DNA of 58,265 nucleotides from a virus (IMGVR_UViG_3300022179_000289:1-58265); one strand, 5' to 3'. Positions 1-40,655 are shown, counted from the stretch's first letter. Translations and numbers: made by a program. The notes: generated by a model from the sequence alone, not told the origin.

Positions 1-1
1 G

Positions 2-157
2 CTGCGGCGTATCCAAGCAGTGGCGCGTTACTCAGGCAACTGGCGCGTAATGAGGTTCGACGTTGATGTATATGATGCCTTTAAGCTTATCGAAAAGTGC
101 ATAGACGAACTTATAGAACGTGACGGGGGGAAGGCATGTCCATGCAAATCAATCTAG
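2..157 (+). CDS. 5'-truncated hypothetical early protein
   Basis: Open frame from the window edge (LRRIQAVARYSGNW...CPCKSI) to TAG 155-157, overlapping the next gene. Confidence 0.5.
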   Translation: MRRIQAVARYSGNWRVMRFDVDVYDAFKLIEKCIDELIERDGGKACPCKSI

Positions 158-333
158 AGCGGCGCGACAACGAGACGAGGCGCTGGGACACTGTGGCGAC
201 CTTCGAGTTTGGCAGCCATGCGATGGAAGCAGCCAGAGCATTGAGCGAAGCTGACGGATGGGAATGGCGCGTGATAGACACCCGCTGGAATGACCCGCTG
301 GTTATTATATATAAGGAAGGGATAGCAACATGA
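136..333 (+). CDS. hypothetical early protein
   Basis: 65-aa ORF, purine-rich RBS, ATGA overlap with the next gene. Confidence 0.7.
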   Translation: MSMQINLERRDNETRRWDTVATFEFGSHAMEAARALSEADGWEWRVIDTRWNDPLVIIYKEGIAT

Positions 334-554
334 GACTGACACGAGACAGCGAAACGGACGAGGTGCGGGACGCACTGATTGAGCAGGATATGGAGAGCCT
401 GACAGCGCAAGAGATGGGCGACATAGTTATCGCTCGCTGGGAACAATTTGAACCGCTAATCCGGCAGTATGTGGAAGACCAATGGAAGGACGGCCATGAC
501 GTTTGGCTGGAAGCCGAAGACCGAGGATTTTTTGAAGATTACGGAGATTACTGA
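330..554 (+). CDS. hypothetical acidic early protein
   Basis: 74-aa ORF coupled on both sides (ATGA, TGATG). Confidence 0.75.
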   Translation: MRLTRDSETDEVRDALIEQDMESLTAQEMGDIVIARWEQFEPLIRQYVEDQWKDGHDVWLEAEDRGFFEDYGDY

Positions 555-721
555 TGAAGACGGAGATTACAGTTAGCCAAGCGGCAGCAGCCGCAGCCTA
601 TGGCCTACTCTTTGAGTATATAAAGGAAGGCGGCGAAGGCCATGACGAGGAGGGCATCTTGGAGTTTATGGACGCACTAGGGGAAGCCGACCGGATTGTC
701 ATTCTAGAGGAAAACCAATGA
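554..721 (+). CDS. hypothetical early protein (55 aa, not in ORF track)
   Basis: Hand-translated MKTEITVSQAAAAAAYGLL...ILEENQ; GGAG RBS; TGATG and ATGA overlaps. Confidence 0.7.
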   Translation: MKTEITVSQAAAAAAYGLLFEYIKEGGEGHDEEGILEFMDALGEADRIVILEENQ

Positions 722-900
722 ACATTAGACCCGACGAATGGAAAAAGCTGTTCGAGTTACGCGACGACCTAGAAGGCGAAGACCGCACACTGATGCGTAA
801 GCTTATCCAATACACAGAGATGCTGGAGGCAGAGATGGCCTCTATCAAGAAACTGGCACACAAAGCCTTGAGCAAAGGAGGAGCAGACCATGACGACTAA
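718..900 (+). CDS. hypothetical early protein
   Basis: 60-aa helical ORF with GAGG RBS. Confidence 0.7.
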   Translation: MNIRPDEWKKLFELRDDLEGEDRTLMRKLIQYTEMLEAEMASIKKLAHKALSKGGADHDD

Positions 901-1069
901 GAGGGAAGCAGCCACGCTGTTGCGCCGCTACGATAAGATGCGGCACGAACTGAGACTACTTGAACATGACCTAGCCAAGGCTTGCACCGACTACGGCAGA
1001 GCGCAAGGCATCTGGGGCTTTACCAGAGACCACCTGCGTATGCAGCTTGAGCGGGAGAAGGCAGCCTGA
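890..1069 (+). CDS. hypothetical early protein (59 aa, not in ORF track)
   Basis: Hand-translated MTTKREAATLLRRYDK...EREKAA; RBS AGGAGGAGCAGAC. Confidence 0.7.
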   Translation: MTTKREAATLLRRYDKMRHELRLLEHDLAKACTDYGRAQGIWGFTRDHLRMQLEREKAA

Positions 1070-1088
1070 CACGGCGGAAATTAGGGGG

Positions 1089-1118
1089 GTTGACAATGTC
1101 TAGCGACCCTGCTATAAC
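1089..1118 (+). promoter_or_regulatory. sigma70-type early promoter P1
   Basis: TTGACA 1090-1095, 17-nt spacer, TATAAC 1113-1118 with extended TG; intergenic. Confidence 0.85.
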
Positions 1119-1165
1119 ATCGAGGCGGGCAGGAAAGCCCGCAACGTTAAACTGGAGAAGTTAAA

Positions 1166-1375
1166 ATGACTGAACTTAACACAAACGCCATTATCGTTCG
1201 TTCACCAACGGGCCGAGACATCGCAGCCTTTGCAGACCCCGAACACGCATGGACATGGGTGGATGAGGTGTATGACCTGCGCGCCCATACAATTTATGAG
1301 CGGCCCGATGGCAAGACGTTGCGCCACGGCATGACAACTAAAAAGGCCATGATTGACTGGGCTGTGGCCGAGTAA
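1166..1375 (+). CDS. hypothetical early protein
   Basis: 69-aa ORF with GGAG RBS just downstream of P1. Confidence 0.75.
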   Translation: MTELNTNAIIVRSPTGRDIAAFADPEHAWTWVDEVYDLRAHTIYERPDGKTLRHGMTTKKAMIDWAVAE

Positions 1376-1380
1376 CAAAC

Positions 1381-1399
1381 GGGGGGCCTTGCGCCCCCC
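1381..1399 (+). other. GC-rich intergenic hairpin (pause, processing or stability element)
   Basis: GGGGGGC-CTTGC-GCCCCCC; no U-tract follows. Confidence 0.45.
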
Positions 1400-1419
1400 A
1401 CCCCACAAGGAGCAAACTG

Positions 1420-1575
1420 ATGGACGACTATACAGAGGAAACACCCGAGGAGCGTGAGGCTGGGCGGAAACTACTACGAGACCTGACCGCGATGACTGAG
1501 AAATTTTTAAAGGCTACGTCACGCGAAGAAGCGGAGGCTATCTTAGTGGAGTATAAAAAGGAGAACGAACAATGA
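1420..1575 (+). CDS. hypothetical early protein (51 aa, not in ORF track)
   Basis: MDDYTEETPEEREAG...KKENEQ; preceded by AGGAGCAAACTG. Confidence 0.75.
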   Translation: MDDYTEETPEEREAGRKLLRDLTAMTEKFLKATSREEAEAILVEYKKENEQ

Positions 1576-1745
1576 CCGAACCAACTAAAGACCGCAGCTA
1601 CTACCGGAAACTGTCCCTAGCTGAGCTAGAGGAGCTAACCCACTACGGCACGGACGTGAATTGGCAGGAGCTTACCATTGCTATGGCCGAGCGGATGGCA
1701 GACATTCGTGACGAGGTTTATGCAGAGATATCCGAAGGGGATTGA
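1572..1745 (+). CDS. hypothetical early protein (57 aa, not in ORF track)
   Basis: MTEPTKDRSYYRKLSL...ISEGD; AAGGAG RBS; ATGA overlap. Confidence 0.7.
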   Translation: MTEPTKDRSYYRKLSLAELEELTHYGTDVNWQELTIAMAERMADIRDEVYAEISEGD

Positions 1746-1770
1746 CAATGTATAGATGAGGATATAGCCT
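1741..1770 (+). promoter_or_regulatory. sigma70-type promoter P2
   Basis: TTGACA 1742-1747, 17 nt, TAGCCT 1765-1770; shares TTGACAATGT(A/C)TAG with P1. Confidence 0.7.
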
Positions 1771-1791
1771 CACTAGACAAGGAGCAAACTG

Positions 1792-2124
1792 ATGGCAAAG
1801 ACGCCGGAAAAAGTCGTTAAAGATAAAGTCATGTCCATCTTGCGGGATGAGGGCGTTTATTATTTCATGCCCCCTGCCAATGGCTTTGGACGCAGTGGCA
1901 TCCCCGACATCGTGGCTTGTGTTAATGGACTGTTCCTTGCCATTGAGTGCAAGGCAGGCGGTAACAAGCCGACCGCCCTACAAATCAGAGAGATTGAAGC
2001 TATCCGGCGCAACGACGGCGTGGCTGTGGTTGTGGACGAGACCAACTGGGACATGGTGCGTGAGCTAGTCCGCAGGCTGAAGCTTACTATCATCTCTTCG
2101 GCCTCAGACGCAAAAGGTGCGTGA
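1792..2124 (+). CDS. VRR-NUC domain nuclease (Holliday junction resolvase-like)
   Basis: E...G.PD...IECK...PTALQ PD-(D/E)XK pattern typical of phage VRR-NUC proteins. Confidence 0.85.
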   Translation: MAKTPEKVVKDKVMSILRDEGVYYFMPPANGFGRSGIPDIVACVNGLFLAIECKAGGNKPTALQIREIEAIRRNDGVAVVVDETNWDMVRELVRRLKLTIISSASDAKGA

Positions 2125-2185
2125 TGTTTCGACGGCTGATCGACTGGATACTGGCGCGCCTGTTCGAAGGATATAAAGGAAAGGA

Positions 2186-2404
2186 TTGGGATTAATGAAC
2201 GATAACACACAACCCCGCTGGACGGTTAAGCTAACCTATCGCTATGCCGAAGGACCACGTAGCATTACGCTTAAGGTTGAGGAGCTTTTCGAGCTTCAAG
2301 ACATCGTGGAGTGCGGCCCTAGCTTCTACTCCATCGAGAGTATTGTGGTTATGCCGAGCGACCGTTGCCCCAAGGTGACTGTGGAAGAGGCGGCGAAACA
2401 ATGA
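2186..2404 (+). CDS. hypothetical protein
   Basis: ORF in operon order; real start may be ATG 2195. Confidence 0.6.
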   Translation: MGLMNDNTQPRWTVKLTYRYAEGPRSITLKVEELFELQDIVECGPSFYSIESIVVMPSDRCPKVTVEEAAKQ

Positions 2405-2679
2405 TTAAGACACAACACTGCCCCAACTGCGAAGCCACCGAGAAAAAGCTGCACGACTTCAAGCAGAAGGTGAGCGATGCGCTTTATGATTACTTTGGTG
2501 ATGCTCATGTCCAGTGGGGTGGCCCTTTAAGCCATCTTTTCATCATCCGCACGCCCAAGCTTGACCCGCTGGATGAAATAATGGGCGAGTTTCTTTGGTC
2601 GCCAAAAGCTACCGATGACCTTCGCGCCGCACTGGAAGCCCGTGGGCTGGAGATAAGGGAGAAGAACGATGACCAATGA
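2401..2679 (+). CDS. hypothetical protein with N-terminal CxxC
   Basis: ATG 2401 overlaps the previous stop (ATGA); CPNC motif. Confidence 0.65.
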   Translation: MIKTQHCPNCEATEKKLHDFKQKVSDALYDYFGDAHVQWGGPLSHLFIIRTPKLDPLDEIMGEFLWSPKATDDLRAALEARGLEIREKNDDQ

Positions 2680-3043
2680 TAAAGACAGCGCAGTGCTGGC
2701 GGATCAAACATTAGCCACAGCATACCGTGACTGGCGGTTGTCAACAACGGCATCGCCAATACACTATAAGCCAATGGAGCTGGCTTTTGTAGCTGGCTGG
2801 AAAGCAGCCCTACGCCAACCCACACAGACCGAAAGCTACCGCCTAATCCAAGACGGACAGCCAGTGGCATGGGCTGAAGGCTCTAAGGCAGATGTAGAGA
2901 TTGCACATTACGCTGCCGTCTATGGACAGGATGGGCCAGTAAAAATCCAGCAAAATGTCAAAGGACGCTGGAAAAATGTCCCGTCACCCGAAGGTGACGG
3001 GAGCCAGCAACGTATTGCTGGCGGGGTGGAAGCAGAAGGATAA
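2669..3043 (+). CDS. hypothetical protein
   Basis: 124-aa ORF with GGAG RBS. Confidence 0.65.
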   Translation: MTNDKDSAVLADQTLATAYRDWRLSTTASPIHYKPMELAFVAGWKAALRQPTQTESYRLIQDGQPVAWAEGSKADVEIAHYAAVYGQDGPVKIQQNVKGRWKNVPSPEGDGSQQRIAGGVEAEG

Positions 3044-3049
3044 CACCAA

Positions 3050-4873
3050 GTGAATATAATTGTTTGCGATTTCGAGACCTACTATGACCGGAGCTACTCG
3101 CTGTCCAAGGTGACAACGGAAGAATATATCCGTGATCCGGGCTTTGAGGTTATCGGCGTATCCGTAAAGCGTAACGACGAGCCTGCCGTGTGGTTCAGCG
3201 GCACCAAGATACAAACCAAGCGGTGGCTGGACCAGTTTGAATGGGACAACGCCATCGCTGTGGCGCACAACGCTGTGTTTGATATGGCTATCCTCAACTG
3301 GCACTTCGACATCCGACCCAAGCGGATTGCTGACACTCTGTCTATACTTCGCGCTATCGACGGACCTGATGCTGGTAACAGCTTAGCCAAAGCTGCTGAG
3401 CGTTACGGGCTGGGCATCAAAGGCGACGAAGTTATCAACGCACTGGGTAAGGGGCGTCTGGACTTCACGCCGGAAGAACTGGACCGTTACGGGCAATACT
3501 GCATCAACGACACCGAGCTTACCTACGACCTGTTCCAGAGGATTGCTGTGGGCTTCCCGCAAATAGAGTTCCGGTTAATTGACCTGACCATCCGGATGTT
3601 CACGGAGCCGATGCTAAGCTTAGACGAGGAAGTCCTCACAAATCACCTGTCTAATGTGAAGAGTTCCAAGGACGCCCTCATGGCCAAGCTCAACTACGAC
3701 AAGGCCGACCTGATGAGTAACCCCAAGCTGGCCGAGTTGCTGATGTTTCATGGGGTTGTTCCGCCAACCAAGATCAGTCCGGCTACAGGCAAGGAGACCC
3801 ATGCGTTCGCCAAGAACGACGAAGCCTTCAAGGCGCTGCTGGAGCATGAGAACCCACAGGTGCAAGCCATCGTCGCTGCACGGCTAGGCGTTAAGTCCAC
3901 ACTGGAAGAGACAAGGACAGAGCGGTTCATCAAGATAGCCGAGCGTGGCACGTTACCTGTGCCCCTGCGCTACTACGCTGCACATACTGGGCGATGGGGA
4001 GGGGATGATAAGGTCAACCTCCAGAACCTACCGCGCAAGTCACCGTTGAAGAAGGCAATCATACCACCCGACGGCTATGTGTTCATCGACTGTGACTCAT
4101 CACAAATCGAAGCGCGCACCTTGGCGTGGCTGGCTGGGCAGAACGACCTCGTCGCTGCGTTCGATAAGGGTGAGGACGTATATAAGATCATGGCAAGTTC
4201 CATCTATGGTGTGGATGTTGATGAGGTGACAGACCCGCAGAGGTTCGTAGGAAAAACAACAATCTTAGGCGCAGGTTACGGCATGGGGCCAACCAAGTTC
4301 CAAGCGCAGTTAAAGACCTTCGGCGTCGATATGCCAGAGGATGAGTGCAAGCGTATTATCAAGGTGTATCGTGAGACCTACCCGATGATCCCCAAACTAT
4401 GGCGGCAGGCAGGAGATGCGCTGGACGCTATGGCGAACAACCAGACAGCCCCAATAGGGTTGGACGGTGTGCTGGTAGTGTATGGCAAGGATGGCATCAA
4501 GCTACCCAATGGCTTGAGTATTAAATATCCCAACCTGCGCTGGAAGCCGATGATGGGGAGCCAGCACAACGAGATGGTCTACGACCAGAAGAAGGGCCGC
4601 GCAGTTATCCCGACACGGATATATGGCGGGAAGGCTGTTGAGAATATCTGCCAAGCACTGGCGCGTATCGTGATCGGTGAGCAGATGCTGATGGTCGCAC
4701 GCAAACTGCGTGTGGTGATGACGGTGCATGATGCCGTGGGGTGCATCGCACCTGAAGCAGAAGCAGACAAGGCACGGGCCTATGTCGAGGACTGCATGCG
4801 GATAAGGCCGAAATGGGCAGTGGCACTGCCGTTAAACTGTGAGAGCAAGATGGGAGCAAGCTATGGAGGATAA
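3050..4873 (+). CDS. polA: family A DNA polymerase with 3'-5' exonuclease
   Basis: ExoI DFET, ExoII HNAVFD, ExoIII YCIND; HTGRW; motif A DSSQIEAR, motif B RFVGKTTILGAGYG, motif C VHD. Confidence 0.95.
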   Translation: MNIIVCDFETYYDRSYSLSKVTTEEYIRDPGFEVIGVSVKRNDEPAVWFSGTKIQTKRWLDQFEWDNAIAVAHNAVFDMAILNWHFDIRPKRIADTLSILRAIDGPDAGNSLAKAAERYGLGIKGDEVINALGKGRLDFTPEELDRYGQYCINDTELTYDLFQRIAVGFPQIEFRLIDLTIRMFTEPMLSLDEEVLTNHLSNVKSSKDALMAKLNYDKADLMSNPKLAELLMFHGVVPPTKISPATGKETHAFAKNDEAFKALLEHENPQVQAIVAARLGVKSTLEETRTERFIKIAERGTLPVPLRYYAAHTGRWGGDDKVNLQNLPRKSPLKKAIIPPDGYVFIDCDSSQIEARTLAWLAGQNDLVAAFDKGEDVYKIMASSIYGVDVDEVTDPQRFVGKTTILGAGYGMGPTKFQAQLKTFGVDMPEDECKRIIKVYRETYPMIPKLWRQAGDALDAMANNQTAPIGLDGVLVVYGKDGIKLPNGLSIKYPNLRWKPMMGSQHNEMVYDQKKGRAVIPTRIYGGKAVENICQALARIVIGEQMLMVARKLRVVMTVHDAVGCIAPEAEADKARAYVEDCMRIRPKWAVALPLNCESKMGASYGG

Positions 4874-5426
4874 GAAGAAAATCGTTCTGACGCAGAGTCA
4901 GATTAAGATATGCAAAATGCTGGCAACGGCAGGTCTGGACGAAGATCAAGCTAAGGCAGAAGCCGAAGGTATTCCGTTCGACTATGAAGCTGAGAAGGCC
5001 AAACGTGAGCATGAGTTTCTCATGTTTTACGTCGCTGAGATAGCGAAAGATCGTGACTGGGAAGAGACACGGGATAAGGCGTTTCATAGCGTTATCTCTA
5101 CCTTAATAGGGTGTGACAGACTGTATAACTACGTCCGTGAACATGTGCCGGACTTGAAAGCGTTGCGTGAGCTAGACCCAGCAGAGGTTCTTAAGGTGCA
5201 CGGCTATGGCAAGAAGACGGTAGAGGAATTGAAAACCCTACAAGAGCGTTTCACCAAGCATAGGAATATATTACCTCGGTTGAATAAGGCTATCCGATCT
5301 GAGCGCTATCTTCAGGAATTTACGAAAGAACATAACGACACAATCCGAACTTATAAGGCGTTACAACGCAACGCTAAGCACGATAAAAGCTTCCTAGACC
5401 AGACGTGGAAATATCATGTCGGATGA
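4863..5426 (+). CDS. protein with RNA polymerase alpha-CTD-like (HhH) domain
   Basis: RLYN...LKAL...EVLKVHGYGKKTVEELK resembles alpha-CTD [17 protein letters not shown]; start moved to ATG 4863 behind GGGAGCAAGCT. Confidence 0.6.
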   Translation: MEDKKKIVLTQSQIKICKMLATAGLDEDQAKAEAEGIPFDYEAEKAKREHEFLMFYVAEIAKDRDWEETRDKAFHSVISTLIGCDRLYNYVREHVPDLKALRELDPAEVLKVHGYGKKTVEELKTLQERFTKHRNILPRLNKAIRSERYLQEFTKEHNDTIRTYKALQRNAKHDKSFLDQTWKYHVG

Positions 5427-6060
5427 TCCAGACTGGTGGCCTAAGCCGTGGATTTACGACGACTGGCTTCAAGAAAAGCTGCGCCGAGACAAAGAGTGGC
5501 AGAAAGAACACCGTGCGAGGGCGGCGCAGCGGCGCATGGAGCGGATTAATTCTGGGTTCAAAAGCCTAGCGCCCGCCGGACCGACACGTGATCCAGTGGT
5601 GCGAGAGGCACGGCTGGAGGAGTTTAAGGACAACCCGAAGCTACGCAAGTGGGCGGTATGGAAACAATACCGAGCCGGAGGGACCACGCTAAATAAGGTT
5701 GGTGAGGACTTCGGGGTTGGGACGGAGCGAACACGGCAGATGGTTCACAAATGTGAGCGGATACTACGCACCGCTTTGAACCGAGATAACCTTACCTTTC
5801 CAGTGATTGATGAGGTGCGAGAAGCAACGCTAGGTGTTGAGTTCGTGTTCCGTAACGACCTGACATTCAATGTGTTAGACGGCGATCAGAAAGGTTGGGA
5901 ACGCCTTGAGCCTGCTATGCATGACAGCAGTATATATAGAGACCCTGTGCCTTGGTGGAAGCCGGAGTGGGGACTTCAAGATACCTCACCGGCTAAACCC
6001 AAACCCACATACACATATTACAAAACCATTATCGAGAAGGAGCAAAGTGATGGCGATTAA
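5416..6060 (+). CDS. protein with sigma70 region 4.2-like HTH
   Basis: TLNKVGEDFGVGTERTRQMVHKCERILR aligns by eye with RpoD [28 protein letters not shown]. Confidence 0.7.
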   Translation: MSDDPDWWPKPWIYDDWLQEKLRRDKEWQKEHRARAAQRRMERINSGFKSLAPAGPTRDPVVREARLEEFKDNPKLRKWAVWKQYRAGGTTLNKVGEDFGVGTERTRQMVHKCERILRTALNRDNLTFPVIDEVREATLGVEFVFRNDLTFNVLDGDQKGWERLEPAMHDSSIYRDPVPWWKPEWGLQDTSPAKPKPTYTYYKTIIEKEQSDGD

Positions 6061-6580
6061 CCCTACAAACGAAACGCTGATTACGGACTTGGAGTTGAGG
6101 GTGCGGACCGCCAACTGCTTTCGCAATATTAACTTGCAGGTTAATGGTCAGGACGCACCCCCTGCAAAGGTTAAAGATTTCCGGCATTTCACGGATGAAG
6201 AGCTACTGAAGTTTCCTTGGTTTAGCGCAAAGTCATTGGCCGAATGGAAAGAAATCCTGTGGCGCGTCGATAATCCAGAAGAAATCTATGTCGAAAAACC
6301 TGAGCCTTTCCCGATACCACGCAAAACCACCAAGGAAGATAAGTTTCATCCCGTGGTTAAGCTACTGCTCAGCCGGATGAGAAACCGACCAGATGAATTT
6401 TCTGGCACTAGGAATGACTACTACCACAATGAAAAAGGGCCGAGCGCGAGATGGGCTGATGTCGTGCATCAACTGCAAGAACACATGACACCAGATGAAA
6501 AGGCCGCATTGAACAAGGCTGTGCGCGAGATACGCATGATGAGAATACACCACGATGTTATGCAGGAGTTACTGAGATGA
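6050..6580 (+). CDS. protein with N-terminal RNA polymerase alpha-CTD-like domain
   Basis: ITDLELRVRTANCF...EELLKFPWFSAKSLAEWKEIL versus alpha-CTD VDDLELTVRSANCL...[20 protein letters not shown]; start ATG 6050 behind AGGAGCAAAGTG. Confidence 0.75.
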   Translation: MAINPTNETLITDLELRVRTANCFRNINLQVNGQDAPPAKVKDFRHFTDEELLKFPWFSAKSLAEWKEILWRVDNPEEIYVEKPEPFPIPRKTTKEDKFHPVVKLLLSRMRNRPDEFSGTRNDYYHNEKGPSARWADVVHQLQEHMTPDEKAALNKAVREIRMMRIHHDVMQELLR

Positions 6581-6894
6581 AGATTACTAACTATGGCACT
6601 AACTTTGCCGACTACGAGATCGACGAAAACTGCCATCTCTATAAGGTGGAGGTCTTCGACCGAGCAGAGGACGCTGAGCACGGAACCCATACCACGGTGG
6701 AAGGGGAGCTTGTTACCCAAGACAGGGACATGAGCGGCAACCCATCCAGCAGGCGGACAGGCGTAGCCCTGCACTTCTGGAGCGAGGTGAACGAAGCACC
6801 CGAAGATAAGTTCGTCATGTGCATATTCCAGCACAAGGGTGGCGAGTTCATCCAGTTCAAGACACTAACAGAATACGAAGGGAAGGCCGCATGA
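6577..6894 (+). CDS. hypothetical protein
   Basis: 105-aa ORF with AGGAG RBS and ATGA overlaps. Confidence 0.75.
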   Translation: MKITNYGTNFADYEIDENCHLYKVEVFDRAEDAEHGTHTTVEGELVTQDRDMSGNPSSRRTGVALHFWSEVNEAPEDKFVMCIFQHKGGEFIQFKTLTEYEGKAA

Positions 6895-7496
6895 GCGAGT
6901 ATCAATTCACCAAAGACTGGTTCAACTGGGCACCGGAAGTCTGGACGCAGCTTATCCCTATGCTGTCAGGTGAAGCAGGTAAGCGTACCTTTATCGAGAT
7001 TGGCTCCTTTGAAGGCCGCAGCACCGTCTGGATTGCCGAGAACATGATGCAGGATGACGACTGGATTATCTGTATAGATACGTGGGAAGGTGGCGAGGAG
7101 CATGGTGCCGAGGATATGGGGGCTGTCGAGGCGCGGTTTGACCACAATACGGAGTTGTTTAGTGCCAAACACGGTCACGAGCGAGTTATTAACAAGAACA
7201 AAGGCAAGTCAACACATTGGCTAGCTTATGAGATGTACGAACAAAAAACCCAAGCGGACTTCATCTACATCGACGGCAGCCACATTGCCAAGGATGTGCT
7301 GACTGACGCCTGTATGGCTTGGCCGTTGCTCAAGCCCAAGGGGATGATGGTGTTTGACGATTACATGTGGGGCAATCCACGTGACATCCTGCACCGCCCC
7401 AAACCCGCCATCGACGCCTTCTGCAACCTGTTTGCGGAAGAGGCAGAGATTGTCCACGTTGGATACCAACTAGTAGTACGCAAGAAGGGAGAGTAG
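6891..7496 (+). CDS. class I SAM-dependent methyltransferase (Methyltransf_24-like)
   Basis: IEIGSFEGRS motif I, IYIDGSH, LLKPKGMMVFDDY; start ATG 6891. Confidence 0.85.
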   Translation: MSEYQFTKDWFNWAPEVWTQLIPMLSGEAGKRTFIEIGSFEGRSTVWIAENMMQDDDWIICIDTWEGGEEHGAEDMGAVEARFDHNTELFSAKHGHERVINKNKGKSTHWLAYEMYEQKTQADFIYIDGSHIAKDVLTDACMAWPLLKPKGMMVFDDYMWGNPRDILHRPKPAIDAFCNLFAEEAEIVHVGYQLVVRKKGE

Positions 7497-7498
7497 AA

Positions 7499-7675
7499 AT
7501 GGATTACGTAACAGCAGTAGCAGTGTTTGTGTTGGTTTTTGCCAGCTACATGGTGGGGCGGTTCAGTGCCAGCAGTGATACTAGTACCATCAAACGTGAG
7601 AACGAGCGGCTCAACGCCGAACTAAGGGTGCTAACAAAGCGCGACTCCAAGGGTCGCTTCACAGGGGGTAAGTAG
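7499..7675 (+). CDS. small membrane-anchored protein (58 aa, not in ORF track)
   Basis: MDYVTAVAVFVLVFASYMVGRF hydrophobic helix, short coiled coil, RDSKGRF tail. Confidence 0.7.
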   Translation: MDYVTAVAVFVLVFASYMVGRFSASSDTSTIKRENERLNAELRVLTKRDSKGRFTGGK

Positions 7676-7854
7676 TGCCAATAGTAAAACGGACTAGCCG
7701 CGTGTGGACACCTGAAATGGACGCAGAGTTGTTGGAGTATTACAAGCACGGCCTAAGGGCAGCGTACATAGCGGAACGGATGGGGCTTACGATAGCTTCG
7801 GTCGAAGGCCGCTACAGGAAACTAAAAAAGAAAGCAGAAGAAAATGACGGATGA
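7675..7854 (+). CDS. GcrA N-terminal-like / Myb-like HTH protein (59 aa, not in ORF track)
   Basis: GTG start; WTPEMDAELLEYYKHGLRAAYIAERMGLTIASVEGRYRKL. Confidence 0.65.
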   Translation: MPIVKRTSRVWTPEMDAELLEYYKHGLRAAYIAERMGLTIASVEGRYRKLKKKAEENDG

Positions 7855-8617
7855 AATTAAAGTGCCGACCAAGCGACCATCGCTGATGATAGCCACCCCC
7901 ATGTACGGTGGTATGTGCACGGGGTCCTATGTGCAGGGCTTACTGATGACCATGGCCAAGATGCGGGAAATCGGCGTCAACGTGGCGTGGTGTCAGATAA
8001 TGAACGAGAGCCTTATCACCCGTGCACGTAACGAGCTAGCTCGTGTGTTTCTGGCTAGTGACCATGACTACCTCATGTTCATCGACGCTGACATCGGCTT
8101 CGATAGCGAGGCTGTCGCGCAGCTTATGCTGGCCGACAAAGACATCACCTGCGGTATCTACCCCAAGAAGGAAGTGAACTGGGATAGCGTGGAACGTGCG
8201 GCACTGGCTGGCAAGGACGACCTAGCAGCGCATGCCGGAGCCTTCGTCTTCAACATGGTTGGCGGAGAGCATCAAGAAACAGATGAGACGGGTTGCATCG
8301 AAGTCCGCCACGGTGGCACTGGCTTCATGCTCATCAAGCGCGGGGTGTTCGAGCATCTTATCCCCCACGTTCCAACCTATCGCGTATCATCATTCACAGA
8401 CCCAGCGACTGGTGAATACGCCAAGCCTTTGACCCATGAGTTCTTCGCTACGTCTATCGACGAGAGCGGGGCGCTGTTGTCAGAGGATTACCACTTTTGC
8501 GAACTGTTTCGCAAACACGGGGGTAAAATCTACGCCCACCCGTTTATCCGGCTGACCCACACAGGCACCTATGTGTTTGATGGGGACATCCTCAAAAGCG
8601 GCGGCAATCTTAAATAA
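7844..8617 (+). CDS. GT-A fold glycosyltransferase-like protein
   Basis: IATPMYGG, ESLITRARN, YLMFIDADI (DxD), GTGFMLIKR, SEDYHFC. Confidence 0.75.
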   Translation: MTDEIKVPTKRPSLMIATPMYGGMCTGSYVQGLLMTMAKMREIGVNVAWCQIMNESLITRARNELARVFLASDHDYLMFIDADIGFDSEAVAQLMLADKDITCGIYPKKEVNWDSVERAALAGKDDLAAHAGAFVFNMVGGEHQETDETGCIEVRHGGTGFMLIKRGVFEHLIPHVPTYRVSSFTDPATGEYAKPLTHEFFATSIDESGALLSEDYHFCELFRKHGGKIYAHPFIRLTHTGTYVFDGDILKSGGNLK

Positions 8618-8629
8618 GGAGCAAACGAC

Positions 8630-9127
8630 ATGAAGAAGAACAAAGCAGCAGGGATTATGAAACTGTTGAAGCAGGGCTATGCCGCTAGGGAAATCAAAGA
8701 CCGTATGGCAGTGAGCGAAAGCTACATCTATGCGGTTAAGAAGCAGATGGCGGCACTCGCAGCCTTGCAGGGTAAGGGTAAGGAGCGGGTAGTAGGCACA
8801 GCGGAACGTAAGGTTCCCGGCGGTCCCGCTACGATGATACGACCTACTACGGAGGACAGGGTTAATAGAATCCTCGATGAACGCGGAAGTCGGTACGGTA
8901 ACTTCCTCGACCATGCCACAATCACCTATAAACTCAAAGAAGTGGCGCGTAACTTCGCTGAAGAGAAGGGCAAGACGTTCGCCGTGGACCAATGCGAAGC
9001 GATGGATATGATTTTCCATAAGATTGGGCGCATCTTAAATGGTGACCCGAACTACGCTGATAGCTGGATTGATATTGCTGGCTATGCTAAGCTGGTAGCT
9101 GATCGCCTAGAAGGAAAAGTCCGATAA
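8630..9127 (+). CDS. conserved phage protein (DUF6378-like C-terminus, N-terminal HTH)
   Basis: ERGSRYG...KIGRI...DSWIDIAGYA; N-terminal HTH-like segment. Confidence 0.7.
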   Translation: MKKNKAAGIMKLLKQGYAAREIKDRMAVSESYIYAVKKQMAALAALQGKGKERVVGTAERKVPGGPATMIRPTTEDRVNRILDERGSRYGNFLDHATITYKLKEVARNFAEEKGKTFAVDQCEAMDMIFHKIGRILNGDPNYADSWIDIAGYAKLVADRLEGKVR

Positions 9128-9128
9128 C

Positions 9129-9800
9129 ATGACAGCTTGGTCGTACAGCAGTATCAAAACATTCGAGCAATGCCCGAAGAAGTATTTCCACCTCAAGATA
9201 GCTAAGGACGTCAAGGACGAACCCGGCGAGGCGGCTGAATACGGTACTGCTGTACACCTAGCGGCTGAAGAGTTCATTCGAGATGGCAAGCCCATCCCTG
9301 AGAAGTTTGCCTTCATGCGCCCCATCGTGGAACCGCTGGCTGCTAAGCAAGGGGAGAAGCACACCGAGTTACGGCTAGGTGTAGCCAAGACGGATACTGG
9401 CTTTGCCCCTACGACATTCTTCGCCAAGGATGTCTGGTATCGGGGCATCGTGGACTTGCTGATTGTCGATGGAACCAAGGGCTGGATGATCGACTACAAG
9501 ACTGGCAAGAACGCGAAGTATGCGGACATGAAGCAGCTTGACCTGATGGCAGGTGCGCTCTTTATTAAGCACCCTGAGTTGGAAACCATCAAGTCAGCAC
9601 TAGCCTACGTGGTCAGTCAAGAGTTCCCGAAGAAGACCCACAAGCGGGAGCACCTCGATAAATATATGTCCGTGTTCGACGATCAGCTTTATAACCTCGA
9701 CGCCGCTATGGAGAATGGTGTATTCAACCCCAAATCAGGGCCGCTTTGCGGATGGTGCCCCGTCACCTCCTGCGAACATTGGAAACCACGGAGGAAGTGA
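9129..9800 (+). CDS. PD-(D/E)XK exonuclease, Cas4/AddB-like with four Cys
   Basis: SYS..CP, GTAVH, GIVD, IDYKTG, QL..MA, C-terminal CGWCPVTSC. Confidence 0.88.
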   Translation: MTAWSYSSIKTFEQCPKKYFHLKIAKDVKDEPGEAAEYGTAVHLAAEEFIRDGKPIPEKFAFMRPIVEPLAAKQGEKHTELRLGVAKTDTGFAPTTFFAKDVWYRGIVDLLIVDGTKGWMIDYKTGKNAKYADMKQLDLMAGALFIKHPELETIKSALAYVVSQEFPKKTHKREHLDKYMSVFDDQLYNLDAAMENGVFNPKSGPLCGWCPVTSCEHWKPRRK

Positions 9801-10081
9801 TGGCTAGGGATTACCGCAAAGAATACGATACATACCAAGGTACCGCACAGCAGAAGAAGAACCGCGCTGTACGCAACGCAGCCCGTGCCAAGATGGCGAA
9901 GGCGGGTAAAGCCAAGAAGGGTGACGGCAAGGATGTCGGCCACGTCGTGGCGCTCGACAAGGGCGGTAGCAACAAGACTGGCCTACGCATGGTCAGCAAG
10001 TCAGCCAACCGATCCTTCGACCGAGACGCCAAGAAGAACCTGATTTCGGAAACAAGTCCACGAGAACGCAAAAAGAAATAA
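9800..10081 (+). CDS. small basic HNH-like endonuclease
   Basis: DGKDVGH...KGGSN...LRMVSKSANRS resembles a beta-beta-alpha-Me motif; start ATG 9800 (TGATG). Confidence 0.65.
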   Translation: MARDYRKEYDTYQGTAQQKKNRAVRNAARAKMAKAGKAKKGDGKDVGHVVALDKGGSNKTGLRMVSKSANRSFDRDAKKNLISETSPRERKKK

Positions 10082-10101
10082 GCGTACCAAGGAGCAAGCT
10101 G

Positions 10102-11646
10102 GTGCAAATCGTTGAAAACAAAGCGTTACTCATTAACGCACAAGACCCGTGCCTCATTACAGACAACATCCACAAGAGCGCAGAAGTAGCCGAAGGCGTG
10201 GTTGTCAAATGGGGACATAATGAAACGGAAATCCTAGCGCAGCTTGGCTTCGCAGATACCCCCTCGCCTATGCTCAAGTCCTACCAGTGGACGGGTAAGT
10301 TCGAGCCGTTCAAGCACCAGAAGACCACGGCGTCATTCCTATCTATCCGCAAGCGGGCGTTCTGCTTCAACGAGCAGGGCACAGGCAAGACAGCCAGCGT
10401 GATTTGGGCAGCCGACTACCTCATGAAGAAGGGCTTGGTGAAGCGCGTGCTGGTACTATGCCCCCTGTCGATCATGAAGTCGGCGTGGCAGCAGGACCTG
10501 TTCAAGTTTGCTATGCACCGTTCGTGTAGCGTAGCGCATGGTGCAGCCAAGCAGCGGGAGAAGATCATTAACTCTGGGGCTGACTTCGTCATCCTTAACT
10601 TTGATGGGCTGGCTGTGGTCAAGGACACAATCGCCAAGGGTGGTTTCGACCTTATCGTGATTGACGAGGCCAACGCCTACAAGAACCCAACGACCAACCG
10701 CTGGAAGATATTGAACCGCTTGGTGCGCGACACCGACCCACGCCTGTGGATGTTGACTGGTACGCCAGCGGCGCAGTCTCCGGTGGATGCCTATGGTCTG
10801 GCCCGTATGATGGACCTGCCGGGATGTCCCAAATATTATGGCGTCTTCCGTGACAGCGTGATGCGCAAGGTGACCCAGTTTAAGTGGACGCCGAAGAGCA
10901 ACGCGCAGGCAATCGTCCATAAGGTGTTGCAGCCAGCCATCCGGTTCGAGAAGAAGGATTGCTTGGACCTACCGTCCGTAACGCACATCGAGCGCGAAGC
11001 GCCCCTCACCCCGCAGCAGCGCAAATATTATAACGAGCTTAAGAACCAGTTGCTGTTCGAAGCCAGTGGCGAGGAGGTCAGCGCGGTCAACGCTGCGACC
11101 AAACTTAACAAGCTGCTCCAGATTAGCGGAGGTGCAGTCTATACGGATAATGGTGAGGTACTTGAGTTCGACGTATCCAACCGCCTGAACGTGGTGTTGG
11201 AAGTCATCGAGGAAGCCAGCCATAAGGTGCTGGTCTTCATACCGTTCACCCACACCATCGAGCTTCTGCGCGCCCGTCTGGAGAAAGAAGGCATCACGTG
11301 CGATGTCATCAACGGCAAGGTACCAGTCAACAAGCGCAGCGATATCGTCGATAAGTTCCAGCGTGAGCCAAACCCACGCGTCCTACTCATTCAGCCCAAG
11401 GCAGCAAGCCACGGCCTGACCCTGACGGCAGCCGACACCATCATCTGGTACGCACCCACAACGAGCGTGGAAACCTATCTACAGGCAAATGCCCGTATCG
11501 ACCGTGCGGGGCAGAAGAACGCCATGACCGTGGTGCACATCAAGGGCAGCCCTGTAGAAGAGAAGCTTTACAGCATGTTGCAGGGCAACATCGACAACCA
11601 CCAGAAAATTATCGACTTATACAAACAAGAACTTGACACTGTATAG
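10102..11646 (+). CDS. SNF2-family superfamily 2 helicase
   Basis: QGTGKT, VIDEAN, LTGTP, HGLTL, QANARIDRAGQ. Confidence 0.93.
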   Translation: MQIVENKALLINAQDPCLITDNIHKSAEVAEGVVVKWGHNETEILAQLGFADTPSPMLKSYQWTGKFEPFKHQKTTASFLSIRKRAFCFNEQGTGKTASVIWAADYLMKKGLVKRVLVLCPLSIMKSAWQQDLFKFAMHRSCSVAHGAAKQREKIINSGADFVILNFDGLAVVKDTIAKGGFDLIVIDEANAYKNPTTNRWKILNRLVRDTDPRLWMLTGTPAAQSPVDAYGLARMMDLPGCPKYYGVFRDSVMRKVTQFKWTPKSNAQAIVHKVLQPAIRFEKKDCLDLPSVTHIEREAPLTPQQRKYYNELKNQLLFEASGEEVSAVNAATKLNKLLQISGGAVYTDNGEVLEFDVSNRLNVVLEVIEEASHKVLVFIPFTHTIELLRARLEKEGITCDVINGKVPVNKRSDIVDKFQREPNPRVLLIQPKAASHGLTLTAADTIIWYAPTTSVETYLQANARIDRAGQKNAMTVVHIKGSPVEEKLYSMLQGNIDNHQKIIDLYKQELDTV

Positions 11647-11661
11647 TCACCCTCGTAAGCA
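11632..11661 (+). promoter_or_regulatory. putative promoter/operator P3
   Basis: TTGACA 11633-11638 then CTGTATAG (same extended motif as P1 and P2); weak -10 TAAGCA at 17 nt. Confidence 0.6.
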
Positions 11662-11685
11662 GGGGGAATAACGAAGGAGCAAACC

Positions 11686-12090
11686 ATGACTGATAAGATA
11701 CCCGTAGAGAAGCTCGTTGCTGCGTACCGCAAAATCCGTGCGGCCATCGCAGAGGAGGAAGAAGCATTCGAAGCTAAGGTCGCTGGCCTTAAGGAAAATC
11801 TGGAGCTTGTATCCAAGGAGCTTCTGGACTTCTGCAACGACCAGAACATTGACAGCATTCGCACACCTGCTGGCACCCTATCAAGGCGCGTTCAGTCCCG
11901 ATACTGGACGACTGACTGGGAGCAGATGTACAAGTTTATTGAAGAGCATAACGTGCCGTTTCTACTTGAGAAGCGCCTGCACAATGGTAACGTGAAGCAG
12001 TTTTTGGAGGAGAATCCGGACGTCCTCCCGGTCGGTCTACAGGTCGATAACAAGTATGTAGTCCACGTCCGCAAACCGACAGAGAAGTAA
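11686..12090 (+). CDS. conserved replication-module protein, coiled-coil N-terminus
   Basis: 134-aa ORF with strong RBS, between helicase and SSB-like gene. Confidence 0.8.
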   Translation: MTDKIPVEKLVAAYRKIRAAIAEEEEAFEAKVAGLKENLELVSKELLDFCNDQNIDSIRTPAGTLSRRVQSRYWTTDWEQMYKFIEEHNVPFLLEKRLHNGNVKQFLEENPDVLPVGLQVDNKYVVHVRKPTEK

Positions 12091-12100
12091 GGAGCAAACT

Positions 12101-12127
12101 ATGACCAAGGAGAAACCAAATGAATGA
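12101..12127 (+). CDS. putative 8-aa leader ORF MTKEKPNE
   Basis: ATG directly after AAGGAGCAAACT; stop overlaps the first codons of the next gene. Confidence 0.4.
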   Translation: MTKEKPNE

Positions 12128-13037
12128 GATAACTATTTTTGACCAGCCCACTGAGGGCGGCTTCGTTCGGCGTGAGTCGGGCCGCTTGGACCGCATGGGT
12201 GGTAGCGGCATCACATCGCGCCGTATCAAGATCAGCAACGGACGCGTCTTCAAGCGCGTCGTGAATGGCGAAGAGATTGGTAAGGCTGTTGACAAGCAGC
12301 TTGATGTCATCATCGTCGATTGGCTGCTTGAGCCATCACGCAAGTTCTATGCTGGTGCTTATGATAAGAACGCCAAGGCAACGCTACCTGACTGCTGGTC
12401 GAACGACGGTATTAAACCGGAAGCATCAGCCAAGGCTCCGCAGGCTAAGACCTGCATGGAATGCCCCAAGAACGTGAAGGGTTCCGGTTCCAACGGTCAG
12501 GGTAAAGCTTGCCGCTATGAGCGTCGTCTGGCTGTCCTCGTTGCTGGTGATCCATCGGGCGATGTCTACCAGATCACGGTCCCCGGCGGGTCTTTGTTTA
12601 GTAACAACAACGGCAATCTTTATGGGTTCGAGGGTTATAAGAAATTCCTTCTGGCCAATAACGCAGCACCCGATACAGTCATAACGAGCCTTATCTATGA
12701 CCCTGAAACCGACACTGCCAAGCTGTGGTTCAAGGCAGCGAGCTTTTTGAACGCGCAGCAAGCTGCTGCTGTGGATGTTGCGCAGAAGGACCCTACCACA
12801 GACCGCTTACTCAAGCTGACGGCTGCGGCTGTGGATGGGGCCAAGGCTATTGCTGCTGCTGTTGCTGAACCTGTGGCTGCCATCGCACCGCCCACTGCGT
12901 CGGTTAACCCCTTCGGTGACGACGACGATGAGGACGAAGTTCCCGTTAAGCGCGCTGCCAAGAAGGAAACCCCCGCTGCTCCCAAGGCTGAACTGAATGA
13001 AGTTCTTGGTGACTGGCTCGATGAGGATGAGGATTAA
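12120..13037 (+). CDS. putative single-stranded DNA-binding protein
   Basis: Replication-module position, beta-rich core with Cys cluster, Ala/Pro linker, acidic tail DWLDEDED. Confidence 0.65.
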   Translation: MNEITIFDQPTEGGFVRRESGRLDRMGGSGITSRRIKISNGRVFKRVVNGEEIGKAVDKQLDVIIVDWLLEPSRKFYAGAYDKNAKATLPDCWSNDGIKPEASAKAPQAKTCMECPKNVKGSGSNGQGKACRYERRLAVLVAGDPSGDVYQITVPGGSLFSNNNGNLYGFEGYKKFLLANNAAPDTVITSLIYDPETDTAKLWFKAASFLNAQQAAAVDVAQKDPTTDRLLKLTAAAVDGAKAIAAAVAEPVAAIAPPTASVNPFGDDDDEDEVPVKRAAKKETPAAPKAELNEVLGDWLDEDED

Positions 13038-13040
13038 GCC

Positions 13041-13280
13041 ATGCAAGGTTACACCATCCGTGTAGCCGAGGCGACTAATAACGCTGACGGTAGCCTCGTG
13101 GGAGTCCAGCTTGGACGCTTGTGTATCAAGCACGACATCTCGGTGTCGCAAGTGGCTCGTGACCTCGGGGTTACCCGTCAGACGATTTATAGTTGGTTTA
13201 GTGGAAGGTCCGAGCCGCAGGCGTATTACGCTACGTCTGTGCGCCGGATGCTCGAAGAGCTTACACAAGCCAACACCTGA
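13041..13280 (+). CDS. Cro/XRE-family HTH regulator
   Basis: ISVSQVARDLGVTRQTIYSWFSGRSEP. Confidence 0.85.
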   Translation: MQGYTIRVAEATNNADGSLVGVQLGRLCIKHDISVSQVARDLGVTRQTIYSWFSGRSEPQAYYATSVRRMLEELTQANT

Positions 13281-13336
13281 CCCTCGGTACAATTATAAAT
13301 TATTAGCGAGCGCTGCTCGCAACGGAGAAGATTTCG

Positions 13337-16177: not shown

Positions 16178-16361
16178 GGGCGTAACCTATGAAATTAACT
16201 GGCGGGGGTTCAAAAAAGGGACCTCCGTCTTCTTCCCGTGCTTGGATTCAGATCGCGCCAAAGCACAACTAATGGTGGTCACCGAGCGCCTGAGAGTCAA
16301 GGTATTGACGAAAGAGGTCATCGAAGAGGGAATTAGGGGTTTACGCGTCTGGCGGATGTGA
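16167..16361 (+). CDS. hypothetical protein, last gene of the early arm
   Basis: 64-aa ORF overlapping the primase stop; ends GLRVWRM. Confidence 0.75.
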   Translation: MLIEGVTYEINWRGFKKGTSVFFPCLDSDRAKAQLMVVTERLRVKVLTKEVIEEGIRGLRVWRM

Positions 16362-16368
16362 GTATATA
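16340..16368 (+). promoter_or_regulatory. putative promoter for the small RNA
   Basis: TTTACG 16340-16345, 17-nt spacer, TATATA 16363-16368; no ORF downstream on this strand. Confidence 0.6.
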
Positions 16369-16374
16369 GCCCGG

Positions 16375-16434
16375 GACAGTTTGCTCCTGTCGCTTGATCT
16401 GAGACCCCGCTGGCCCTCCCGGCGGGGTCTTTTT
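16375..16434 (+). ncRNA. candidate trans-acting anti-RBS small RNA (~60 nt)
   Basis: Hairpin GACAG-TTTGCTC-CTGTC; 16377-16388 is the reverse complement of AGGAGCAAACTG; flanked by a promoter and an intrinsic terminator. Confidence 0.65.
16402..16434 (+). terminator. intrinsic terminator at the convergence of both arms
   Basis: AGACCCCGCTGG-CCCTC-CCGGCGGGGTCT then TTTT. Confidence 0.9.
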
Positions 16435-37444: not shown

Positions 37445-37452
37445 GGTTGCTC

Positions 37453-37650
37453 CTAGTTCTGTCCGTTACCCGGCTTATAACTGATGCGTCCCTTTTCCAC
37501 CTCCGCCATGCACCTGTCAACCTCTTGTTTGCCGCGCAAGATGTGGTCATCGTGCAAGTTAAGCTTTTCGCAGTTATTAATCCAATCGCGCTGGTATTGG
37601 GGAAGTCTATCGAAACACCCCATCACAATCTTTAGCCTAGCGTGGTCCAT
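37453..37650 (-). CDS. hypothetical protein
   Basis: 65-aa ORF coupled by TAATG to the Gly-rich gene. Confidence 0.65.
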   Translation of the reverse strand: MDHARLKIVMGCFDRLPQYQRDWINNCEKLNLHDDHILRGKQEVDRCMAEVEKGRISYKPGNGQN

Positions 37651-40600: not shown

Positions 40601-40655
40601 TGAACACCTGACTACCCGAAGCCGACCCTGTGGCATTCATGTGATTTAAGGGCAT
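37650..40655 (-). CDS. 1001-aa Gly-X-Y repeat (polyglycine II/collagen-like) receptor-binding fibre protein
   Basis: Four blocks of 27-aa repeats between beta motifs GTFIVPTGVYSV, SSFG, IPVTVG and GQVTVNW typical of phage Gly-rich adhesins. Confidence 0.8.
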   Translation of the reverse strand: MPLNHMNATGSASGSQVFNAPGTFIVPTGVYSVNLSGRGGAGNAGNAGNPGTAGNPGNPGTNGNGGAGGAAGAAGNTGATGNAGNPGNNGAGGAGGAAGLAGNPGGTGNAGNPGTNGNGGAGGARGNAGNSGTPGNAGNPGNNGAGGAGGPRGNAGNPGTIGNSGNPGNNGAGGAGGPRGNAGNPGATGNAGNPGNNGAGGAGGPRGNAGNPGGTGNAGNPGNNGAGGAGGNGGGGGNGGGGGTAGGGPGSPGVGGSAGNPGGSAGGTANGIFGAGGGAGGTPGGGSGGTGGDGFFCCFGCYNGGGGGGGGGSGIAGNPGGAGGAGANGNAGNTGNAGTGATAGGAGSPGNAGANGTAGNTGAAGTGATAGSAGSPGGAGAAGTAGNTGAAGTGANPGTAGSPGGAGANGNPGTAGAAGTGATNGGAGSPGNAGANGNAGTTGNAGTGATSGGAGSPGNAGANGNAGTTGAAGTGATNGGAGSPGNAGAAGNNGTGAANGNPGAAGNTGNVSSFGSYLTMPGGAGGNGGNAGTGSNGVAGAAGNPGGTGNAGNPGSNGNGGAGGNAGAAGSPGGIGNSGNPGNNGAGGAGGARGNAGNPGGTGNAGNPGTNGAAGAAGNGGAAGNPGGQGNAGNPGTNGAGGAGGNGGLAGNPGGIGGTGNPGNNGAGGAGGNGGAAGNPGGQGNAGNPGTNGNGGAGGPRGNAGNPGSAGNAGSRGGGGGGGAGGCGAFGLGNAGASGNAGTVSGGGTNGNGGNGGGGGGAACGNPGNAGGTGPAGNTGAAGTGATAGGAGSPGNAGANGNVGNTGAAGTGATAGNAGSPGGAGANGNVGNTGAAGTGATAGNAGSPGGAGANGNPGNTGNAGTGATAGNPGGAGGAGANGNAGNTGNAGTGATNGAAGSPGNAGVAGNPGTTGAAGTGATSGGAGSPGNAGVAGNAGTTGAAGTGATPGNAGSFNAGGSGNAGSTASTNSANAAKVWPFQQIPVTVGSGSAAGQVTVNW
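38095..38258. repeat. perfect 81-nt tandem duplication
   Basis: 38095-38175 is identical to 38176-38256. Confidence 0.85.

Follow-up and report, generated by a model that had tools for sequence, protein, structure and literature searches.

Why do many early genes of a phage carry the same sequence not only at the Shine-Dalgarno (SD) position but also through the spacer up to the start codon? The question is raised by a 58,265-bp record of an uncultured virus (IMGVR_UViG_3300022179_000289, estimated 93% complete), which was analyzed at full length and is called the window here. A preceding inspection without database searches (the sequence-only reading) had described a translation-start signature around GGAGCAA and preferred RNA-RNA over protein recognition as its explanation. 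The answer that we consider reasonably probable is that this motif is the common target, or ‘address’, of a phage RNA of ~60 nt that pairs with the SD and the spacer of a set of early genes. The genome is organized in two converging arms separated by a gap of 72 bp. The early arm (16.4 kb, + strand, 1-16361) encodes a DNA polymerase, SNF2 helicase, primase, exonuclease, methyltransferase and many small open reading frames (ORFs), and the late arm (41.8 kb, - strand, 16433-58265) carries the structural, lysis and packaging genes. The window (G000) was compared with four whole relatives that carry the motif (G001-G004) and with a sixth genome that carries another motif (G005). Gene starts were predicted with a heuristic caller of our own (ORFs of at least 35-40 codons, a codon-bias filter and start selection by a generic SD score). 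In IMG/VR, at least 598 contigs contain a homologue of the helicase and at least 563 a homologue of the last early gene; 80 loci were retained from each of both scans.

All nine motif strings listed in the sequence-only reading are present in the window (Table 1). The 12-mer RGGAGCARRYTG has four exact matches against 0.20 expected, a number reached in none of 100 shuffles, and GGAGCAA has 15 matches against 8.56 expected, reached in one of 100 shuffles. Nine of these 15 matches are located on the + strand of the early arm and two on the late coding (-) strand, a copy in the junction between the arms left aside. Within 18 nt of a start, GGAGCAR is found for 8/31 early and 1/45 late genes of the window (Fisher p = 0.0026); the early-versus-late comparison that had been proposed as a test does not find the motif equally common at late ribosome-binding sites (RBSs). 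Among starts with a GGAG-type SD the proportions are 8/17 and 1/17 (p = 0.017). Across the five motif genomes, 47 of 138 early starts and 2 of 211 late starts carry GGAGCAR (47/84 and 2/89 if only GGAG SDs are counted), and G005 uses GAGGTA instead (8/35 early versus 1/41 late starts). The near-confinement to the early arm holds in the window and in five further genomes, and the single partial copy noticed at a late gene is confirmed as well. Conservation through the spacer is also supported, with a register that is fixed to the SD and not to the start codon: the distance from GGAG to the start is 6-8 nt at 83 of the 95 distinct GGAGC sites. Orthologous helicase genes retain GGAGCAA before their start in 34 of 76 loci, amid 19 different upstream 8-mers, and the motif is therefore not simply inherited with its gene. 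Indeed, orthologues gain and lose it, as for the DNA polymerase gene, which has no motif in the window and does have one in G003. The motif is a family trait under selection. A scan of the collection with a 15-mer of the motif followed by ATG mostly returned single chance matches and was informative for locus L027 only.

A potential partner of the motif is present in the junction between the arms. There, the sequence-only reading had overlooked a full 12-nt copy on the minus strand (16377-16388) with no start codon behind it. Read along the early strand, the same positions are the exact antisense of AGGAGCAAACTG (the ‘seed’), spanning the loop and the 3′ stem of a hairpin that precedes an intrinsic terminator, and the motif copy at 1408-1419 forms 12 contiguous pairs with them. 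All five motif genomes have one reverse copy each, always in the convergent junction. A small minus-strand gene behind this copy was ruled out, as neither ATG, GTG nor TTG follows in any of the five. Hairpin and terminator together fold at -32.9 kcal/mol (z -4.96), and the T-run of the terminator and the stop codon of the 1567-aa late gene overlap. The stem of the hairpin occurs in relatives as GGAAG/CTTCC, GACAG/CTGTC, GCAAG/CTTGC, GAGAG/CTCTC and GGTAG/CTACC. The following counts apply to those 18 of 27 sequences whose loop measures 7 nt, since MAFFT does not gap the variable loop: 98.9% of the cells pair, three of five pairs are changed on both sides and none of 500 shuffles reaches the score. 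Compensatory pairs are observed in the terminator helix too. RNAalifold did not recover the first hairpin from the MAFFT alignment because the loops differ in length. Of 87 distinct junctions, 80 have a terminator-like hairpin with a T-run on the early strand and one has it on the opposite strand. A search of positions 15800-16800 against Rfam, the C4 family included, gave best matches of 18.6 bits, compared to gathering thresholds of 58.8-108.

Changes of the loop and of the early RBS motif are matched in five clades or more, and we regard this co-evolution as the strongest evidence for the RNA proposed here. In the main clade, a loop UUUGCUC accompanies the RBS motif GGAGCAAAC. Loop UUUUGCUC goes with GGAGCAAAAC (L164, L167), (A/G)(A/U)UCGCUC with GGAGCGA(A/U/C) (L188, L193, L199, L182) and UUAGCUC with GGAGCUAA (L278, L282, L288, L292, L296, L298). 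In the remaining clade (G005/L178, L179, L276), the junction element GGUUACCUCU, without such a hairpin, goes with the RBS motif AGAGGUAAC. The window itself offers a finer case: its CTG extension of the motif, found at 3/9 sites, matches a private CAG in its stem, while GGAGCAAACTG occurs at 1/39 GGAGCAR starts of G001-G004 (hand count).

Pairing was quantified as contiguous Watson-Crick runs of at least 8 between the own junction RNA and the RBS windows of a genome, with the terminator boundaries of G004 and G005 set by hand. Such runs occur at 6/31 early and 1/45 late starts in G000, 12/31 and 2/45 in G001, 11/31 and 1/46 in G002, 12/26 and 4/32 in G003, 6/19 and 0/41 in G004, and 6/35 and 0/41 in G005. 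Combining RNA and RBSs across clades leaves 0-1 runs per genome, and the own RNA scores above the mean of foreign-class RNAs in 31 of 34 loci. For an unbiased test, loci were required to extend at least 4 kb upstream of the small last early gene and at least 110 nt beyond it (102 loci, 87 distinct); the query was the commonest 8-mer in the early RBS windows when common to at least three genes (34 loci). Its reverse complement is present in the 110-nt junction of 27 of these 34 loci, where 0.0006 are predicted from elsewhere on the early strand, and the match is therefore not due to chance. The rest of the early strands (372,873 nt) contains these reverse complements twice, the forward 8-mer occurs in none of the 34 junctions, and the seven misses are mostly one-base offsets. 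For 50 of the 66 loci with eight or more gene calls, the count of the junction is reached by no more than 2 of 200 random windows of 110 nt. RNA-RNA recognition, which the sequence-only reading had preferred, becomes the best reading, given a conserved complementary partner (16377-16388, +) that co-varies with the motif.

The candidate RNA would extend from ~16375 to ~16436 on the + strand. Its 5′ hairpin would present a 7-nt loop and a 3′ stem (GUUUGCUCCU, with a CA extension in this phage) complementary to AGGAGCAAAC(UG), and a short linker followed by the intrinsic terminator would complete the molecule. By pairing over 9-14 bp with SD and spacer, it would block 30S binding at about a third of the early genes and thereby jointly lower their translation. 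The position of the candidate RNA at the far end of the 16-kb early block suggests that such repression may act as a feedback or timer. Predicted energies are consistent with this pairing. Duplexes of -13 kcal/mol or lower with the 17-nt hairpin are predicted for 71/173 early and 16/250 late starts in the six genomes (11/31 and 3/45 in the window). Values for the nine sites lie between -16.9 and -23.7 kcal/mol, compared to a cost of 3.8 kcal/mol for opening the hairpin. Longer 5′ regions (39-83 nt) are uninformative, as permissive duplexes form everywhere and reversed controls score equally; energies of these long regions were replaced by the contiguous-pair counts and the 17-nt hairpin.

Two origins of the candidate RNA are considered: transcription from a weak promoter-like element that the last early gene carries at its end, or release of the 3′ end of the early transcript by cleavage. 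Both a weak promoter of its own and processing are possible, and a location at the 3′ end of an operon generally allows either for a small RNA (sRNA). The TATAnn follows the stop codon of the last early gene, 16-17 nt after a TTTACG inside it. Under a relaxed rule, 21 of the 28 distinct junctions show this TTTACG-16/17 nt-TATAnn arrangement in its place, versus 3.3% of random windows. Codon 59 of the last early gene is the leucine codon TTA in 19/24 sequences, with TTA representing 5.1% of the leucine codons genome-wide, and codon 58 is GGT in 22/27. Other conserved leucine positions use five codons. TTTAC is held at synonymous sites (GGT TTA).

A number of observations weigh against a trans-acting RNA. 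One RNA copy per transcript would have to serve about nine targets, a poor stoichiometry if the RNA is neither stable nor transcribed separately. A sigma-70 scan does not call a promoter at the element (8/12 consensus matches), and the strict promoter rule is satisfied in just 3/28 distinct junctions (0.2% of random windows). Three of the 34 loci (L185, L202 and L203) score 0, without any match between junction and RBSs. For G005, the medians of the 17-nt hairpin duplexes do not differ between early and late starts (p = 0.36), and duplexes with the long 5′ regions fail to separate early from late in G000 (p = 0.07) and G005 (p = 0.33). The sequence-only reading had seen mostly A-to-G changes inside the motif, which keep pairing through a wobble. 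This argument is only mildly favored, with 38 wobble-compatible versus 33 incompatible substitutions over the 95 GGAGC sites (non-consensus bases: +2, G 9 versus C/T 2; +3, G 16 versus C/T 14; +4, T 12 versus A/G 11). In addition, all gene starts depend on our own SD-guided caller, and p-values (about 1e-16 for the five genomes) overstate independence because the genomes are related. Finally, the co-variation of loop and motif fits antisense pairing and a minus-strand mimic of the motif alike, as the two are reverse complements and cannot be separated by it.

The mimic belongs to an explanation in which a protein reads the motif. This could be a translational repressor or activator of the phage, or a nuclease resembling RegB that works with S1; a repressor and a RegB-like nuclease had been named as alternatives in the sequence-only reading. 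A minus-strand hairpin in the 3′ tail of the late transcript would then act as RNA mimic that titrates this protein or is processed by it. The minus-strand junction copy is indeed the motif itself, displayed in a hairpin, and would co-vary with the motif as an antisense would. On the late strand, moreover, the terminator hairpin generally lacks a T-run, so that transcription of the late arm could continue into the mimic. Many of the small early proteins are without a known family, and protein-based early shut-off at GGAG sites exists in T4, according to the available part of PMC3014915. We nonetheless consider a protein reader unlikely, and likewise the titration or processing of such a protein by a mimic. 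An antisense RNA is favored because the T-run, the promoter-like element and the synonymous constraint are all on the early strand, because the loop exposes that part of the motif which is unique and because the early arm yielded no candidate for an RNA-binding regulator (no RegA-, RegB-, CsrA- or Hfq-like family in PHROGs or Pfam, which distant homologues may escape). Re-coding of GGAGCAAAC to GGAGCGA can pass via a G-U intermediate, which points in the same direction, whereas a switch to the very different AGAGGUAAC would require a re-targeted protein plus re-written sites. A mimic would also have half of its SD locked in the stem, and the motif deviates from the RegB consensus GG*AGRAYARAA because a C follows GGAG. 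Late read-through into the element may yield an RNA that is fully complementary to the candidate small RNA.

The early genes could also simply share an optimal SD and an A-rich spacer, i.e., an ordinary strong RBS, the junction complement then having no function in trans. AGGAG corresponds to the canonical core of an SD, the coding strand of the early arm is rich in A (AT skew 0.13-0.23) and A-rich spacers are generally favorable. Yet late genes use GGAG SDs as well (89 of 211 starts) and hardly ever continue into CAR (2/89), sister clades use GGAGCGA, GGAGCUAA or AGAGGUAAC, each matched by its own junction loop, and the 27 junction matches in 34 loci exceed chance. CAAAC, moreover, cannot pair with the conserved 3′ tail of 16S rRNA; pairing of the spacer with this tail was rejected on the textbook anti-SD region, which may not be the host’s own 16S. 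Altogether, an ordinary RBS is a very unlikely explanation. Still less probable in our view is a signal at the DNA level, such as a transcription-factor site or a recombination ‘boundary’ between early cassettes with one inverted copy in the junction. The motif is indeed a short repeat between genes that orthologues gain and lose. Its strict strand bias, its distance of 5-8 nt to start codons and the inclusion of the SD are at odds with such a signal, several copies (among which those at 4852 and 6038) are located within upstream coding sequence, and the compensatory stem changes at the junction argue for a folded single strand.

Table 1. Motif copies and junction elements in the window, with predicted duplex energies of the motif copies with the 17-nt hairpin.
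Feature	Position	Strand	Context	Duplex (kcal/mol)
Motif AGGAGCAGAC	879-888	+	RBS of ORF 890-1069 (59 aa)	-17.3
Motif AGGAGCAAACTG	1408-1419	+	RBS of ORF 1420-1575 (51 aa)	-21.2
Motif AGGAGCAAACTG	1780-1791	+	RBS of ORF 1792-2124 (110 aa, endonuclease/Hjc-like)	-23.7
Motif GGGAGCAAGCT	4852-4862	+	RBS of ORF 4863-5426 (187 aa)	-21.4
Motif AGGAGCAAAGTG	6038-6049	+	RBS of ORF 6050-6580 (176 aa)	-17.6
Motif AGGAGCAAAC	8617-8626	+	RBS of ORF 8630-9127 (165 aa)	-17.3
Motif AGGAGCAAGCTG	10090-10101	+	RBS of SNF2-type helicase 10102-11646 (GTG start)	-21.7
Motif AGGAGCAAAC	11675-11684	+	RBS of ORF 11686-12090 (134 aa)	-16.9
Motif AGGAGCAAACT and 8-codon mini-ORF	12090-12127	+	mini-ORF 12101-12127	-18.3
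Last early gene	16167-16361	+	64 aa, no family; last codons contain -35-like TTTACG	
Promoter-like element	16340-16368	+	TTTACG (16340-16345), 17 nt, TATATA (16363-16368)	
Hairpin	16375-16391	+	GACAG / loop UUUGCUC / CUGUC; 5-bp stem	
Intrinsic terminator	16401-16436	+	13-bp stem and T-run; called by terminator scan	
Partial motif AGGAGCAAC	37446-37454	-	only late-gene start with a copy (gene 37444-36725); weaker duplex	-13.8

The sequence-only reading had counted nine translation starts. Eight of the copies do precede genes, but the copy at 12090 precedes only a mini-ORF of eight codons. This mini-ORF covers the SD and start of gene 12120-13037, which has its own SD, while in relatives (e.g., L199, L188) the motif is the direct RBS of the orthologue of that gene. 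The arrangement suggests a possible leader peptide or translational coupling to gene 12120-13037. The copy at 4852-4862 sits within the 3′ end of the DNA polymerase gene, and the start context of ORF 4863 is kept in relatives. The product of ORF 6050-6580 contains a domain resembling the C-terminal domain of the RNA polymerase alpha subunit (PF03118, E 2e-6), and this motif-preceded early protein could act on host transcription.

Some junctions comprise additional elements. Many junctions of the main clade (e.g., L191, L164, L167, L145) have a second CU-rich stretch (GGTT..ACCTCT-like) between hairpin and terminator. It resembles the sole seed of the G005 clade and may be a second seed or a relic. 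In L278, L282, L288, L292, L296 and L298 (the GGAGCTAA clade), an extra hairpin with a CU-rich tail TTTCTCCTC is situated upstream of the seed hairpin. On the other side of the junction, the last late gene (16433-21136, - strand; 1567 aa) matches only the C-terminal thirds of PHROG families of 2,800-3,900 residues, as well as the Pfam family LPD38 (large polyvalent protein domain). Its orthologues in G001-G004 have stop-to-stop frames of about 6.2-8.3 kb.

A near-identity search of the early arm against isolate phages gave no match. The isolates that are closest by helicase protein (~40% identical) are Pseudomonas phage Rollin, Rhizobium RHph_TM phages, and Acinetobacter and Xanthomonas phages. 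In Rollin, the convergent genes overlap, leaving no junction between the arms. Elsewhere in the window, a 1001-aa ORF (37650-40655, - strand) is located in a stretch with 64% G+C and a GC skew of -0.22, versus about 54% G+C elsewhere, with a weak tail-fibre match as its only hit. Two paralogues of PHROG 1574 (unknown function) occur, one per arm (7844-8614, +; 48250-48984, -). Four late genes between 45386 and 47840 (- strand; starts 45386, 47107, 47541 and 47840) share a near-identical AAGGGnAGGTnTGTnTA before their ATG, and the genes upstream of these starts end in a common KGKTKG-like tail. This set consists of paralogous tandem genes, and G004 has the same start context in three identical copies.

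Temporal control in phages is usually credited to promoters, sigma factors and a few RNA-binding proteins. The proposed RNA would be a simple programmable device for joint early translational control, composed of one loop and many identical RBS addresses, in which natural re-coding events reveal the positions that matter. It would also provide ready-made orthogonal RNA/RBS pairs for synthetic biology. For annotation, a rule would follow: the reverse complement of an over-represented RBS extension is to be sought in a terminator-linked hairpin.

Among known systems, RegB and RegA of T4 likewise bring about a joint post-transcriptional shut-off of early genes via translation-initiation regions. 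RegB, with S1, cuts GGAG SDs of early genes that have an extended 3′ consensus and spares late GGAG sites, according to the available part of PMC3014915. In T4, however, proteins act, and no complementary RNA partner features in the part of the T4 literature covered here. In the motif, GGAG is followed by C at 95/95 sites (by definition), then by A84/G9 and A65/G16, which is not the RegB target. It is anchored to the SD at a variable distance from the start, whereas the RegA operator is an A+U-rich, unstructured site containing the AUG. Consequently, AGGAGCAAAC fits neither site type, and PHROGs and Pfam give no RegB- or RegA-like matches among the early proteins.

Bacterial trans-acting sRNAs typically have a 5′ seed, a linker and a Rho-independent terminator with a U-tail; they often pair with the SD, and some are derived from 3′ untranslated regions. 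The candidate RNA shares their terminator-defined 3′ end, compensatory structure and a seed that co-varies with its targets. It differs in that it would target the phage’s own early genes, at near-identical addresses instead of individually evolved partial matches. A phage sRNA that targets a common early-RBS motif was not found in the literature searched, supplements and subscription journals being outside that search.

The start-associated sequences (SAS) of Cluster K mycobacteriophages (Pope et al. 2011, PMC3203893) are described, in the available part of that paper, as a 13-bp asymmetric repeat containing AGGAG, located 3-9 nt before the start codons of 11-19 genes in the non-structural arm only. 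Available sections of papers from 2024 (PMC11373665) and 2025 (PMC12699233) still call their role unknown. Like the motif of the window, SAS are conserved beyond what 16S rRNA can pair with, as far as the accessible descriptions go. The window motif also shares the short distance to starts, the restriction to the non-structural arm and the single orientation with a lone reverse copy. On the other hand, the SAS consensus GGGATAGGAGCCC is not that of the window motif AGGAGCAAAC(TG), as only the AGGAGC core is common. Cluster K phages differ in host phylum and phage family, and their SAS are often accompanied by extended SAS (ESAS) inverted repeats and promoters in the descriptions available. Adephagia (L222, JF704105) has 16 forward SAS copies and one reverse copy. 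The latter (38683-38695) is in the 10-nt loop (CCUCCUAUCC) of a hairpin of ~19 bp (38661-38714) on the rightward strand in the gap between gp92 and gp93, a layout as in the junction hairpin of the window. According to the accessible text of PMC11373665, late transcription starts in this gp92-gp93 region. Pixie (K3) and TM4 (K2) have SAS and no CTCCTATC on the + strand; the parallel is therefore partial and holds in Adephagia only. The words ‘antisense’ and ‘hairpin’ do not occur in the available text of PMC12699233, and the portion of the SAS literature covered proposes no partner for SAS. An antisense RNA of the proposed kind would supply a testable hypothesis for a sequence left unexplained for 15 years. 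In its widest form, the idea is that a phage family (at least 563-598 contigs) writes an address in its RBSs, that the loop of one distal RNA switches the early regulon off, that this code has been re-written at least five times and that it may explain the SAS of Cluster K1. We give this wider proposal an even chance.

With regard to mechanism, the c4 antisense RNA of P1 and P7 provides the nearest precedent. Its loop sequences act in trans, pairing with a phage mRNA at the ribosome-binding region and blocking translation, as stated in the available part of PMC12197685. As proposed here, RNA and target originate from the same phage region, and specificity evolves by matched changes, which in P1 and P7 underlie heteroimmunity in the accounts available. 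In contrast to c4, which acts on one operon (icd-ant) for the immunity of a temperate phage, the candidate RNA would address 8-12 separate early genes of an apparently lytic phage. The sar RNA of P22 is a similar phage-encoded RNA that pairs at a ribosome-binding region. Cluster K SAS are the closest phenomenon, and P1/P7 c4 is the closest mechanism.

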